This document shows positions 154-47,675 of a stretch of 64,000 bases of DNA, one piece after another; within the stretch, counting starts at the first letter, position 1; every line of letters starts with the position of its first letter. This stretch comes from a virus. Made by a program: the position numbers and the translations under genes. The notes beneath the pieces were generated by a model. That model did not search any database and was not told where the DNA came from. It saw only the letters and a list, made by a program, of their open reading frames with translations. The stretch covers positions 64,001 to 128,000 of the IMG/VR virus record IMGVR_UViG_3300043399_000524. One strand, 5' to 3'.

Positions 154-494
154 ATAACAATCATCCATTTAAGATCACACAGTACGATAGATTTATCACT
201 GTGACATGGCCTAATATGAATGATGTCAGGGAAAAAGTTACTAAATTAAAATTAATAGAGGCAGCATTTCAACAATCCAAAGCAGTTGAAGTAGGCTTTG
301 TGTTAGAACTCAACAATAAAGAATATGATATCATGTGGATCAATTCTTTTCTTAGTTTGACTGAAAATGATTATGTGAATTATATACAAGATATGTATGT
401 TATTAAGGGTGTTGCATATAGAGAGAAAACAGATGCAGAGAAGTTCTACAATTGGTTAGAAGGAAAGTATATATGGCAATTACTCAAGGAATAA
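150..494 (+). CDS. Hypothetical protein
   Basis: 114 aa ORF tiled with ATGA overlap; no recognised motif. Confidence 0.7.
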   Translation: MNNNHPFKITQYDRFITVTWPNMNDVREKVTKLKLIEAAFQQSKAVEVGFVLELNNKEYDIMWINSFLSLTENDYVNYIQDMYVIKGVAYREKTDAEKFYNWLEGKYIWQLLKE

Positions 495-751
495 ACGGAA
501 CATTCGTTTCATACAGCGAAATGGATGACCCAATCTATTTTCGTAAATTCAAAAAGACCGTTCCACTTGACGGATCATGGGAAACCCGTGTATTCTATGA
601 GATAACTAAGTTTCCATTGGGTCGCAAAGAAACAGAACAATGGCTAGAAGACCATTATGGTAAGTTGAAATATAGCGACAGTTGGTGGAAAACATTTAAC
701 GGTATATGTATGAATGAAAAGATATACATACACTACAAATTATTGGAGTAA
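473..751 (+). CDS. Hypothetical protein
   Basis: ORF 452-751; ATG 473 preferred, preceded by AAGGAAAG. Confidence 0.65.
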   Translation: MAITQGINGTFVSYSEMDDPIYFRKFKKTVPLDGSWETRVFYEITKFPLGRKETEQWLEDHYGKLKYSDSWWKTFNGICMNEKIYIHYKLLE

Positions 752-753
752 GT

Positions 754-1314
754 ATGGCGGCGGATATAATGATTGATATTGAAAGTTTGAACACAACACC
801 TGATTGTGTTATTCTATCTATCGGCGCGGTTAGATTTGATCCTCGAGGCAACGGTGTTGTTGAACGATTAGAACTTAAACCTACAGTCGAGGATCAAACT
901 GAAATATATAATAGGAGTATTAACGATGATACAATCAGATGGTGGTCAGAACAAAATCCTGCTGCCCTTGAAGAAGCATTCAGCGAAGAAGGTAGAATCC
1001 CATTTGCCGAATGTATGGAGATCCTATACAAGTTTTGTTGGAATCGCCGTGCTGTGTGGAGTAATGGTGCCCCCTTCGATTTGGTCGTTATGGAACATGC
1101 TTGGAGACAAACAAGCGATAAACCTAATCCCATCCCCTGGCCTTTCTGGACAATGCGAGACACAAGAACACTGTGGGAAATCGCAGGAGTCAAACTCAAA
1201 GACGGAGGACACGTTACAAGTCACAAGGCTGTAGAAGATGCTGAACGACAAGCCATCGTTGTTCAACAAGCATACATGAAATTAATGAAAGCAGGATTGG
1301 CAGAATCACGATGA
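754..1314 (+). CDS. DEDDh 3'-5' exonuclease (T4 DexA / Rv2179c-like)
   Basis: ExoI DIMIDIESL, ExoII WSNGAPFDL, RDTRTL, ExoIII HKAVEDA. Confidence 0.85.
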   Translation: MAADIMIDIESLNTTPDCVILSIGAVRFDPRGNGVVERLELKPTVEDQTEIYNRSINDDTIRWWSEQNPAALEEAFSEEGRIPFAECMEILYKFCWNRRAVWSNGAPFDLVVMEHAWRQTSDKPNPIPWPFWTMRDTRTLWEIAGVKLKDGGHVTSHKAVEDAERQAIVVQQAYMKLMKAGLAESR

Positions 1315-1517
1315 ATGTCGAAAGAGAAAACACTTGGAGAACATTGCAAGGTCTTAAACCTATACAATCTTGGAAATGTAGACTTGGATGGCATCGTTGG
1401 ACTAATTATGAAATTCACGATAGGTCACATGATTTTATGGGACCAGTTGCAAGATGCCATTGTGCTGATTGCGGATTACCTAGAATAGAGCCTCCCTACA
1501 CAAAGAGTAAAAAATGA
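1311..1517 (+). CDS. Small Cys/His protein, possibly Zn-binding
   Basis: CRLGWHRW...CHCADCG; overlaps both neighbours by ATGA. Confidence 0.6.
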   Translation: MNVERENTWRTLQGLKPIQSWKCRLGWHRWTNYEIHDRSHDFMGPVARCHCADCGLPRIEPPYTKSKK

Positions 1518-2086
1518 AACTAGATGCTGATATTGACATTGACTTTGGTGACAGAGATAAGTTGTTGAAACTTATTGCTCATACATCTGCGGCTATGCGT
1601 AATGTTAAACCCATGCGTAAACATAACACGGGTGTCTATGTTACGGACATTCCGTATGATTCAGTAAATGACATGGCTAGTATTGATTACACCGAGGCTG
1701 AAAAACGTGGTTATTTTAAACTAGACTTGTTAAATGTTCATGTTTACGAGCAAGTACGTGATGAACAGCATTTAGTTGAATTGATGCAAGAACCAGACTG
1801 GTCTAAATTAAATGATAAAGAATTTGTTGAAAAACTGATTCACTTAGCGAATCATTATAATTCTATACAAAAAATGCCTGAACCCATTGATAGTATCCCT
1901 AGACTAGCAATGTTCTTAGCCGCTATTCGTCCAGCTAAAAAGCATTTGATTGGATTACCCTGGAAAGAAGTCGCAAAGACTATATGGGATAAAGGTGATG
2001 ATGGGTACAGTTTTAAGCGTTCGCATGCCGTTGCTTACGCACATTTGGTAGTAGTTCATATGAATCTACTTACGGCATCCTCTTAA
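1514..2086 (+). CDS. dnaE: Family-C DNA polymerase (DnaE) catalytic palm, C-terminal half of a split enzyme
   Basis: DIDIDF (E. coli PDFDVDF, D401/D403), KHNTGV (KHAGGV), GYFKLDLL (GLVKFDFL, D555), AAIRP (ALFRP), GYSFKRSHAVAYA (GYGFNKSHSAAYA); only 190 aa. Confidence 0.85.
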   Translation: MKLDADIDIDFGDRDKLLKLIAHTSAAMRNVKPMRKHNTGVYVTDIPYDSVNDMASIDYTEAEKRGYFKLDLLNVHVYEQVRDEQHLVELMQEPDWSKLNDKEFVEKLIHLANHYNSIQKMPEPIDSIPRLAMFLAAIRPAKKHLIGLPWKEVAKTIWDKGDDGYSFKRSHAVAYAHLVVVHMNLLTASS

Positions 2087-2518: not shown

Positions 2519-3307
2519 ATGTATTCAACCCAAGTATTTGTTTATACACAAAGACAAATTGTTGTCTTGCTATCAGGGACTTCTCCAAGGAGCTATATGC
2601 CTCAGTATGCCAAACCATTAACCCTACACAAAGGTGTAGATAACCAAATTCAATTTCAGTTCTTGAACCAAGAACAGAAACCCGTAGATATCACAGGAAA
2701 AGAAATTACCTGCAGAATTTTAAATAGTACTGGCACAACTGTCCTAATCAAAAAAGCATTAACTGTACAATTAGGATTAACAGGTATTGCTGCACTATAT
2801 CTAGATCCAGGTGAGTTAGAAGAAATTGACGCACAGAAATGCTATTACACATTAGAAATTCCAGTGGGAACATTTGATTATCCAGTATTTGTTGACCAAA
2901 ATGCAGCCGGCCGCGGAGATATGAACATTGTTAATAGTATATTACCTAGCTTTGTTCCTAGTACAGAACTAACAATTCCCTCTGGTCAAGCATTTGCAAA
3001 TACTGGTTGGATCCCAAATACATATTATGTTCCCGATCCAAACTCAGCAGTGTATTATACCAGTGTTTATACCACGACTAACAACCCGACACTTACTATT
3101 CAAGCAACATATACTGATTTTTATGGTAATGTAATGGTCGAAGGATCAACTGATATTGATAGTGATTGGTATCCAGTTAGCCCATTATTCAATTATACCG
3201 ATACCACAGAAACTTTCCATTATAATGTAACGGGATATCATCCTTATATCCGCATAGGATTTGTAAGTAATGCGGGCGTAGTAACCAATATATTGGTAAG
3301 ATCATAA
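2519..3307 (+). CDS. Probable virion structural protein (beta-rich)
   Basis: T/V/N-rich composition; GATAAATA late promoter at 2503-2510. Confidence 0.6.
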   Translation: MYSTQVFVYTQRQIVVLLSGTSPRSYMPQYAKPLTLHKGVDNQIQFQFLNQEQKPVDITGKEITCRILNSTGTTVLIKKALTVQLGLTGIAALYLDPGELEEIDAQKCYYTLEIPVGTFDYPVFVDQNAAGRGDMNIVNSILPSFVPSTELTIPSGQAFANTGWIPNTYYVPDPNSAVYYTSVYTTTNNPTLTIQATYTDFYGNVMVEGSTDIDSDWYPVSPLFNYTDTTETFHYNVTGYHPYIRIGFVSNAGVVTNILVRS

Positions 3308-45434: not shown

Positions 45435-45941
45435 ATGAGAACTGACATATACGGGCAACAAATCTATGATGAAATGGAGCTATGCTTACTGTATCTGCAG
45501 GATCCCTCACGTAAACTAAAAAAAGTTTTCGTAGAAAAAGAAATCAAGTTTGACGATACCCTACAACTACAAAACATCCCCGAACTTATAAAATACAACA
45601 GTAACAACATTTCTATAGAAGAATTTGACACTATAAATCAAAATAATTGGTTTATGCCCGAAGAATATAAATCAATGGACATAGCCAAATTTGTATTAGA
45701 CCAATGCAAAAATGAAGCAGAATTGCAAAGGGCAGGCGAAGAACTGTTGTTGTTTCAAGAAAGGAACATGTTTACATTGTTGTGCTACTTAAAATATTTG
45801 GTAGATACAATGCGTAAAAATAATATTGTCTGGGGTGTCGGGCGAGGATCGAGTGTTGCTAGTTTCGTATTATTTTTGTTGGGGGTACACCGTATAAATA
45901 GTTTGTATTACGACTTGTCTATCGCTGAATTCTTAAAATAA
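45435..45941 (+). CDS. dnaE: Family-C DNA polymerase (DnaE) N-terminal palm half of a split enzyme
   Basis: R..EEL, L.YLKYLVD.MR, WGVGRGSSVASFVLFLLGVHRINSLYYDLSIAEFLK* (E. coli [34 protein letters not shown]). Confidence 0.85.
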   Translation: MRTDIYGQQIYDEMELCLLYLQDPSRKLKKVFVEKEIKFDDTLQLQNIPELIKYNSNNISIEEFDTINQNNWFMPEEYKSMDIAKFVLDQCKNEAELQRAGEELLLFQERNMFTLLCYLKYLVDTMRKNNIVWGVGRGSSVASFVLFLLGVHRINSLYYDLSIAEFLK

Positions 45942-46669: not shown

Positions 46670-46992
46670 TGAAATGGTTTTATAGATGGTTGGCTAGCAA
46701 GATTCAAGACAGTCAATATGCTGACGAGGAAGCACAAAATATCGGACTAATAATTGGTTCAAATAAAGTAAATAGAGTACGCAAAACTACCACCGTCCGT
46801 GAAAGTGATGAACTTGGCTCTGAACCAATTGTATTCAAAATGTTCAAAGCAAGTGGTGGCTGGGCTATTGAGTTCAGACATTATGATAACAGAAATGACA
46901 GGGTAGATACCAATCTTTATGTTGTCAATGATGAAGAAGAACTTGGTAGTCATATTTCTAAAATTATTACTATGGAGGCATTAAAAAGATGA
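46666..46992 (+). CDS. Hypothetical protein
   Basis: 108 aa, ATGA overlaps on both sides. Confidence 0.7.
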   Translation: MMKWFYRWLASKIQDSQYADEEAQNIGLIIGSNKVNRVRKTTTVRESDELGSEPIVFKMFKASGGWAIEFRHYDNRNDRVDTNLYVVNDEEELGSHISKIITMEALKR

Positions 46993-47675
46993 GTTATTCA
47001 GATACATTAGTATATCGTAGTGCGGCTCAAATCAATGAAGCAATGAGTCGTGTGTATGGCTACATGGGACTTGCTACATTAGTTAGTCTGTTTGTAAGCT
47101 ATGTTGTAGGTTCTAGTCCAGAACTAGTACAATTTTTCTTTACAGGCTGGATGCGCTATGTAACTATTTTTTTACCATTGGTGGCAGTATTCCCAATTAC
47201 CATTGCTTTGAACAGTAACCCACCAAAAGAAATGGCATTATTCATGCTAGTTCTTTTTGCTGGTATAATGGGCTTGAGTTTTGCAGTAATTTTTGCAGTT
47301 TATACAATGGCAAGCATTGTTAGTGCATTTATGGGTTCAGCAGTATTGTTTGGAACTATGAGCTTTTATGGTTATTTTACCAAACAAAGTTTAGACAGTG
47401 TGGGCAAATTCTTATTTGTAGGCTTGATTGCAGTGGTAATTGCTAGTATAATTAACGTCTTTGTGGGTAGTACCGTAGCACAAATGGTAATTTCAGCAAT
47501 TGCAATTATTGTATTCTTGGGACTTACTGCATACGATACACAAAAAATCCGTGAACAATTAATGGATTCTAAGGAGTCAACTGTTGCAGAAGTATCTGGA
47601 GCATTGACATTATACCTAGATTTTATTAATATATTCTTGTCGTTGTTACAACTTTTTGGCAATAAGAAAGATTAA
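46989..47675 (+). CDS. yccA: Bax inhibitor-1/YccA family membrane protein
   Basis: About 7 hydrophobic helices; GLTAYDTQKI and ALTLYLDFINIFLSLL signatures. Confidence 0.93.
   Translation: MSYSDTLVYRSAAQINEAMSRVYGYMGLATLVSLFVSYVVGSSPELVQFFFTGWMRYVTIFLPLVAVFPITIALNSNPPKEMALFMLVLFAGIMGLSFAVIFAVYTMASIVSAFMGSAVLFGTMSFYGYFTKQSLDSVGKFLFVGLIAVVIASIINVFVGSTVAQMVISAIAIIVFLGLTAYDTQKIREQLMDSKESTVAEVSGALTLYLDFINIFLSLLQLFGNKKD

Follow-up and report, generated by a model that had tools for sequence, protein, structure and literature searches.

Do two short open reading frames that lie far apart in a virus genome together encode one DNA polymerase? The question is raised by the stretch of 64,000 nucleotides analysed here, the window, which corresponds to bases 64001-128000 of an IMG/VR virus contig with a length of 139 kb and an estimated completeness of 39%. 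Most of this stretch is contained in only two sequencing runs, both from one freshwater metagenome sample that may be its source, and no RNA data set was listed for it. The original prediction was a miniature family C polymerase split in its active site and encoded by two distant genes. One is an ORF of 190 aa at 1514-2086 (+) with the N-terminus M-K-L-D-A-D-I-D-I-D-F, the other an ORF of 168 aa at 45435-45941 (+) that contains G-V-G-R-G-S-S and ends with E-F-L-K-stop. Coordinates, lengths and motifs are exactly as predicted. Both genes are located on the same strand 43.3 kb apart and together account for 358 aa. Fold, residue conservation, co-occurrence, the presence of a separate family B polymerase (PolB) and a model of the complex all bear out the split miniature polymerase, and the 168-aa and 190-aa ORFs are confirmed as the N- and C-terminal halves of a minimal catalytic core of Pol III alpha (family C). 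They are called N-half and C-half below.

The implied novelty of such a protein did not hold up. The split minimal Pol III alpha of group 2.2 jumbo phages has been described from sequence by Iyer, Anantharaman, Krishnan, Burroughs and Aravind (Iyer et al. 2021, Viruses 13:63, section 3.4.1 and Fig. 3b; PMC7824862), who reported that no other Pol III domains are present with it. Having all defining features of this family, the pair in the window is one of its members. As the split mini Pol III alpha was already known, our additions are small and consist of a single fused form of 375 aa and a residue-level inventory. Literature searches returned only the 2021 description and no biochemical or genetic study of any member, and the main text of the PA5oct omics paper mentions neither half's gene.

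Fold of the two halves

The N-half matches the Pfam family DNA_pol3_alpha (PF07733, E 2e-9) over profile positions 16-94 of 260, and phrog_11127 among the PHROGs (E 1.3e-38). No Pfam match was obtained for the C-half, which corresponds to phrog_11778 (E 9.5e-60). Both PHROGs are annotated as DNA polymerase and both profiles are as short as the ORFs themselves. Single-sequence phmmer searches of the PDB yielded a best E of only 1.2 for the N-half and nothing meaningful for the C-half, so that profiles were needed. A divergent N-half profile matched exclusively Pol III alpha structures (E. coli alpha 320-393, E 1.3e-5), and the C-half profile produced three colinear matches to E. coli alpha at 536-563, 598-641 and 739-767.

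Structure prediction is consistent with these assignments. AF2 models of the N-half and the C-half reached a pLDDT of 87.1 and 94.6, respectively, and for each of them the top 13-14 chains in Foldseek were all family C polymerases. In VIA-align comparisons, residues 66-168 of the N-half (45435..45941, +), which make up the beginning of the palm and carry the R-G-S motif for nucleotide binding, superimposed on E. coli alpha 277-393 (Z 9.7) and on Mtb DnaE1 305-413 (Z 10.4, rmsd 2.5, 95 aa). The range for these two polymerases was Z 9.7-10.4 with an rmsd of 2.5-2.8 over about 95 aa, and the next unrelated chain scored Z 2.4. The C-half (1514..2086, +) comprises the base of the fingers and the remainder of the palm, including its three acidic residues. 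Its residues 1-190 aligned with E. coli alpha 397-779 (Z 8.9) and, over 187 of the 190 aa, with Taq 458-836 (Z 9.9, rmsd 3.6). It also aligned with PolC 968-1294, the next unrelated chain being found at Z 3.8.

The first 65 residues of the N-half (45435-45629, +) form an additional module, predicted with confidence as a small strand-helix fold (pLDDT 82-92). No DnaE counterpart of this module was found in the structure alignments, which begin at residue 66. It is not a PHP domain either, as PF02811 did not match the N-half, residues 1-65 are too short and the alignment with DnaE starts only at E. coli 277.

The C-half is a strongly reduced version of its counterpart. Its 190 residues cover 383 residues of E. 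coli DnaE (397-779), and the protein ends there. The deletion of the thumb is real, most of the index finger is gone as well, and in the profile alignment E. coli 642-738 is shrunk to about 20 residues. The loss of the thumb had been part of the original prediction, as had the absence of PHP, most of the fingers, HhH and OB from the pair, and this reading is supported. The Pfam models for PHP (PF02811) and Pol3-finger (PF17657) did not match anywhere in the 139-kb, 39% complete contig, and they also failed to match the 100%-complete relatives G002 and G003. Because the genome of the window is 39% complete, the lack of further Pol III pieces is shown only in the complete relatives.

Active-site residues and the break point

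Motif equivalences were derived from the profile-to-PDB alignment plus structure alignment, and conservation from 53 N-half homologues and 82 C-half homologues (31-91% identity). On the N-half, the GS motif G136-R137-G138-S139 (45840..45851, +) is invariant (53/53), with R137-G138-S139 equivalent to E. coli R362-G363-S364. The terminal residues E165-F166-L167-K168 and the stop codon (45927..45941, +) match E. coli R390-F391-L392-N393. F166 is invariant in all 53 N-halves, and the position of R390 is occupied by a conserved Glu (E165).

On the C-half, D6-I-D8-I-D10 (1529..1543, +) corresponds to E. coli D401, D403 and D405; D6 and D8 are present in 82/82 homologues and D10 in 81/82. K69-L-D71 (1718..1726, +), equivalent to K553 and D555, is likewise found in all 82. 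R139-P140-A141-K142 (1928..1939, +) aligns with R639-P640-G641; the Arg and the Pro are invariant (82/82), and K142 is a conserved extra Lys of the C-half (74/82). Finally, Y165-S-F167-K168-R-S170-H171 (2006..2026, +) represents the E. coli helix-loop-helix with Y754, F756, N757, S759 and H760 (H171 in 80/82, K168 in 76/82 and F167 in 68/82 homologues). H37 of the C-half is also conserved (81/82). The active site is divided over the chains, with R-G-S on the N-half and D6, D8, D71, K69, R139-P140 and H171 on the C-half.

The conservation of the catalytic Asp residues, on which the prediction depended, is complete for D6, D8 and D71 (82/82). The DxD motif is indeed present at the N-terminus of the C-half, as first proposed, with the refinement that the metal-binding Asp residues are D6 and D8. 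In E. coli alpha, metals are bound by D401, D403 and D555, and D405, the residue matched by D10, is specific to DnaE and replaced by Asn in PolC (PMC3919608).

The functions of the equivalent residues in E. coli are well documented. R362, G363, S364, Y754, F756, N757 and H760 lie within 4 A of dGTP, R362-G363-S364 contact the dNTP sugar and the beta/gamma phosphates, and R639, P640, G641 and G753 are located within 4 A of the templating base (bioRxiv 10.64898/2026.06.29.735100). [quoted passage not shown] The exchanges R362A and K553A abolish activity, and R390A causes a 27-fold drop in catalytic efficiency (bioRxiv 10.64898/2026.06.29.735100). H760 is a steric gate against rNTPs (PMC8485763). 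The residue map of the pair therefore comprises a kept set (R-G-S, D-x-D-x-D, K-x-D, R-P and the Y/F/H of the finger helix) and a lost set, namely R390 and the index-finger basic residues R709, R710, K714 and K715, which fall in the deleted segment. The conserved K142 and K143 might substitute for the latter. Taken together, the residue inventory, as read from the alignments, favours templated use of dNTPs.

As predicted, the halves abut. In the structure alignments the N-half extends to E. coli 393 and the C-half starts at 397, which places the break (393/397) inside the Pol-beta-like palm. The C-half of the window begins five residues before the catalytic strand, and the N-half ends within a DnaE-homologous helix. 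The position is the same in relatives. In 81/81 loci from IMG/VR and one MAG, the N-half stop codon lies 29-30 residues after G-R-G-S and the protein ends with E-F-[LI]-[KR]. In PA5oct, Atu_ph07, PBECO4 and SCTP-2, the N-half ends with E-F-[LF]-[KE] and the C-half begins at most 20 residues before the D-x-D-x-D motif. The split is ancient and precise.

The arrangement of the junction bears on how the chains come together. Joining after translation by a split intein, in the style of cyanobacterial DnaE, has a known precedent, and inteins have been reported in PolB genes of related phages, among them MIJ3 and SCTP-2 (PMC6892783). Alternatively, the two genes could be joined by rearrangement or trans-splicing of nucleic acid. 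Intein blocks, however, need about 100 and about 35 aa, and because the N-half stop and the C-half start sit so near the motifs, there is no room for them at either end of the junction. Moreover, in all relatives the two genes have separate start and stop codons, and the structure alignments account for every residue at the junction. We regard any such joining as extremely unlikely. The fixed N-half stop in 81/81 loci and the C-half start close to D-x-D-x-D agree with the earlier claim that the break is free of inteins.

Predicted assembly, natural fusion and distribution

A complex model of the two separate halves gave an ipSAE of 0.90 in three runs, compared with 0.04 for the best control. 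The benchmark mark for this score was reached by 58/80 solved complexes and by 2/110 mismatched pairs. The runs share at least 97% of contacts, with a partner pLDDT of at least 90. In the modelled interface, W133-G134 of the N-half, in the strand before the GS loop, pairs with C-half residues 9-11 of the D-x-D strand, so that one palm sheet would be completed across both chains. Residues 3, 6-9, 19 and 28-31 of the additional N-terminal module are also predicted to contact the C-half. Because the halves belong to a solved fold, a pass was expected and may reflect their likeness to DnaE. The model shows a DnaE-like fit of the pieces, not binding in a cell, and read in this way it supports the proposed heterodimer as probable.

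Independent support for the halves fitting together comes from a natural fusion. P0298, a protein of 375 aa encoded at L012 1066-2193, consists of an N-half, a 10-residue linker and a C-half in the predicted order. Its N-terminal part matches the N-half of the window (BLASTP 3e-24) and the protein retains all catalytic residues. The gene occurs once, on a 2.4-kb ENA metagenome contig with 25% GC, and is followed by the same small reverse-strand gene that is found after C-halves elsewhere. MAFFT misaligned the N-halves (11-17% identity) in a mixed two-half alignment with P0298, and the halves were folded separately. P0298 is probably a secondary fusion, because it nests among stand-alone C-halves in a midpoint-rooted tree (local clade support 0.98, deeper nodes weak). 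It would provide a ready single-chain version suitable for expression.

No relatives of P0298 were found in IMG/VR or GTDB genomes, and no single place in the phage records covered at least 80% of P0298 or spanned both halves. A word-index search, which we rate as weak evidence, returned no longer fused relatives of the C-half, and a further search of genome contigs led to one MAG contig, in which the genes are split. In the ESM Atlas, clusters of unsplit size (355-378 aa) with PF07733, with or without PF17657, are nearest by features and give a possible lead.

The separate halves, on the other hand, are abundant and travel together. In a large protein collection, each half forms about 8000 clusters at 90% identity, all of them about 168 or 190 aa long, and the C-half falls into 386 clusters at 50% identity. 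By tblastn, the C-half was detected in 96 and the N-half in 95 phage records with the same host distribution. A fused query matched 188 places in 96 phage records, i.e. two places in nearly every record, and at least one record with a single place, a 109-kb Klebsiella phage record, is a fragment. Co-occurrence of the halves across jumbo phages, which had been named as a check of the prediction, was observed in about 92 of the 96 phage records and in 5/5 long IMG/VR contigs that had been picked via the N-half and carry the C-half 37-128 kb away. Judged by sequence comparison, the recurrence of these proteins as halves of a split polymerase is far beyond chance.

Two observations concern individual relatives. 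In G004, the 181-kb IMG/VR contig of L047, the C-half is encoded at 366-929 (-) and the N-half near 128960 (+), 128 kb apart. This opposite-strand arrangement differs from the same-strand layout elsewhere and could reflect either a true inversion or an assembly artefact. In GenBank and RefSeq, the halves of relatives are already annotated as 'DNA polymerase' or 'DNA polymerase III alpha'. In Atu_ph07 (MF403008.1; L006 2950-3525), the GenBank CDS of the C-half begins at locus position 3031 and leaves out an in-frame upstream Met and the catalytic D-I-D-I-D-F strand, so that the true start probably lies further upstream.

The distribution also speaks to whether the genes are still functional. 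About 70% of a normal DnaE is missing and the C-half has no Pfam match, as might be the case for decayed remnants of a captured bacterial dnaE or for a dead structural or regulatory pair in a PolB replisome. Such a fate is hard to reconcile with two intact frames, about 8000 clusters per half, a break point fixed in 81/81 loci and compact folds modelled with high confidence for both halves. Furthermore, the catalytic Asp and Lys residues and R-G-S are invariant down to 31% identity, and the invariant or near-invariant residues of the core as a whole hold across homologues over the same range. Decay or a dead pair is therefore strongly disfavoured and, in our estimate, very unlikely.

Genomic context, proposed function and known systems

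A separate PolB, as anticipated, is present on the contig of the window, where an uninterrupted 894-aa frame for a family B DNA polymerase lies outside the window (G000:C1:137645-138925). PolB of about 900 aa is also encoded in both 100%-complete relatives, G002 and G003. Across very distant phages, the C-half is followed by a small gene on the reverse strand (phrog_11637) and then by genes for a structural protein, primase and DnaB-like helicase. The neighbours of the N-half are likewise kept: a gene encoding about 113 aa comes first, then a GroES-like gene and, at some distance, that of the clamp loader. The window itself encodes primase, DnaB-like helicase and clamp loader, and both halves' genes are located in conserved replication modules.

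In the window, a gene for an Rv2179c-like 3'-5' exonuclease (754-1314, +; PF16473, E 1.3e-31) is found directly upstream of the C-half, and a Cys/His-rich ORF of 68 aa (1311-1517, +) lies between the two. At each of the two junctions between exonuclease, 68-aa ORF and C-half, the stop codon of one gene overlaps the start codon of the next in the sequence ATGA. We considered the exonuclease as a fixed proofreading partner and rejected this idea, as no exonuclease domain is encoded upstream of the C-half in PA5oct, PBECO4, Atu_ph07 and SCTP-2. The upstream exonuclease is a lineage-specific neighbour. At the other locus, the GroES-like gene and the clamp loader gene are separated by an inserted gene for a 228-aa membrane protein of the Bax inhibitor-1/YccA family (46989-47675, +; PF01027, E 8e-54), which deserves mention because an FtsH-like protease has been reported from PA5oct-like relatives.

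Which reaction the pair catalyses is less certain than its identity. The Pol-beta-like nucleotidyltransferase fold serves tailing, priming or signalling chemistry in other families. Thus, the pair might be a nucleotidyltransferase rather than a templated polymerase, i.e. an enzyme of untemplated tailing, a primase-like enzyme using rNTPs or a maker of signalling or counter-defence nucleotides. The missing thumb, most of the fingers and all duplex- and clamp-binding domains would be in line with this, as would the loss of R390 and of the basic index-finger residues by which E. coli alpha grips the triphosphate. Against it, the R139-P140 template contact and the H171 steric gate are kept in 80-82 of 82 homologues, K69, whose equivalent K553 binds the primer's last phosphate, is invariant, and both genes reside in replication modules in very distant phages. 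A nucleotidyltransferase of this kind appears unlikely to us. The retained steric-gate His and template-contact residues in particular make rNTP priming and synthesis of signalling nucleotides less likely.

We consider it probable that the ORFs encode the two subunits of a split minimal Pol III alpha that acts as a template-directed accessory heterodimer beside PolB, the polymerase role being inferred. The palm would begin with strands from the 168-aa protein, which would also provide the R-G-S loop for nucleotide binding. The 190-aa protein would contribute the strands with the catalytic Asp residues, the primer-end Lys, the template-contacting R-P pair and the finger helix that bears the steric-gate His. 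Made separately, the chains would assemble non-covalently without an intein and complete one Pol-beta-like palm sheet across the interface, which would rebuild an active site of 358 aa. The resulting heterodimer would polymerize dNTPs on a template. Lacking thumb, HhH, clamp-binding and OB domains, the pair alone would presumably grip DNA only weakly. An accessory role in the PolB replisome is therefore proposed, such as short-patch synthesis, primer extension or repair, and other replisome proteins would probably help the heterodimer. Whether the pair could perform templated synthesis alone is uncertain, given the missing thumb and the loss of every duplex- and clamp-binding domain.

More tentatively, the 358-aa heterodimer may be an active template-directed family C polymerase and a second polymerase of the PolB replisome, extending primase products or filling short gaps beside the helicase-primase, for example. 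We see this as possible, with the odds somewhat against it. If true, no smaller family C polymerase would be known, and the pair could serve as a working model for the ancestral core of Pol III. An active pair would reduce the minimum of family C to the palm plus the base of the fingers, on two chains. It would also place a bacterial-type core beside an archaeo-eukaryotic-type PolB in one replisome. This would bear on the origins of replicative polymerases, a question raised by Iyer et al. (PMC7824862).

The pair in the window is an ordinary member of a phage family that has been published and is abundant, each half forming about 8000 clusters. What the present analysis adds is the residue map of DnaE contacts, the invariant break point and one fused natural variant. 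Nothing essential differs from the other split Pol III alpha proteins of group 2.2, i.e. of jumbo phages of the Rak2/121Q/PA5oct/Atu_ph07 type. In all of them, an N-terminal NTP-binding piece and a C-terminal Mg2+- and template-binding piece are separate proteins encoded by distant genes, no other Pol III domains occur, PolB is present and the replication backbone is T4-like. PA5oct resembles the window down to the neighbouring genes, and its halves are 43.6 kb apart. The copy in the window comes from an uncultured freshwater giant phage, in contrast to the closest cultured relatives, PA5oct and Atu_ph07, to which it is 43-47% identical. Its lineage further differs from PA5oct, PBECO4, Atu_ph07 and SCTP-2 by the exonuclease gene just upstream of the C-half. 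The fused P0298 has the same two modules in the same order and differs in being a single, linker-joined polypeptide.

With DnaE (E. coli 2HNH/5FKW, Taq 3E0D) and PolC (3F2B), the pair shares the Pol-beta-like palm, R-G-S, D-x-D-x-D, K-x-D, the R-P-G template contact and the F-x-K-S-H finger helix with the steric-gate His; its D10 matches D405 of the DnaE type, which is Asn in PolC. Whereas those enzymes are single chains of about 1160 aa, the phage version is made up of two chains with 358 aa and is devoid of PHP, thumb, most of the index finger, HhH/beta-binding, OB and tau-binding domains. Compared with DnaE, R390 is exchanged for Glu, and the N-half starts with an additional module of about 65 aa. 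In cyanobacteria, a family C polymerase likewise originates from two distant genes (Npu/Ssp DnaE split intein). There, however, the protein is split elsewhere, each part carries one intein half and trans-splicing restores full-length DnaE, whereas the pair described here has no intein residues and a break that runs through the catalytic palm.
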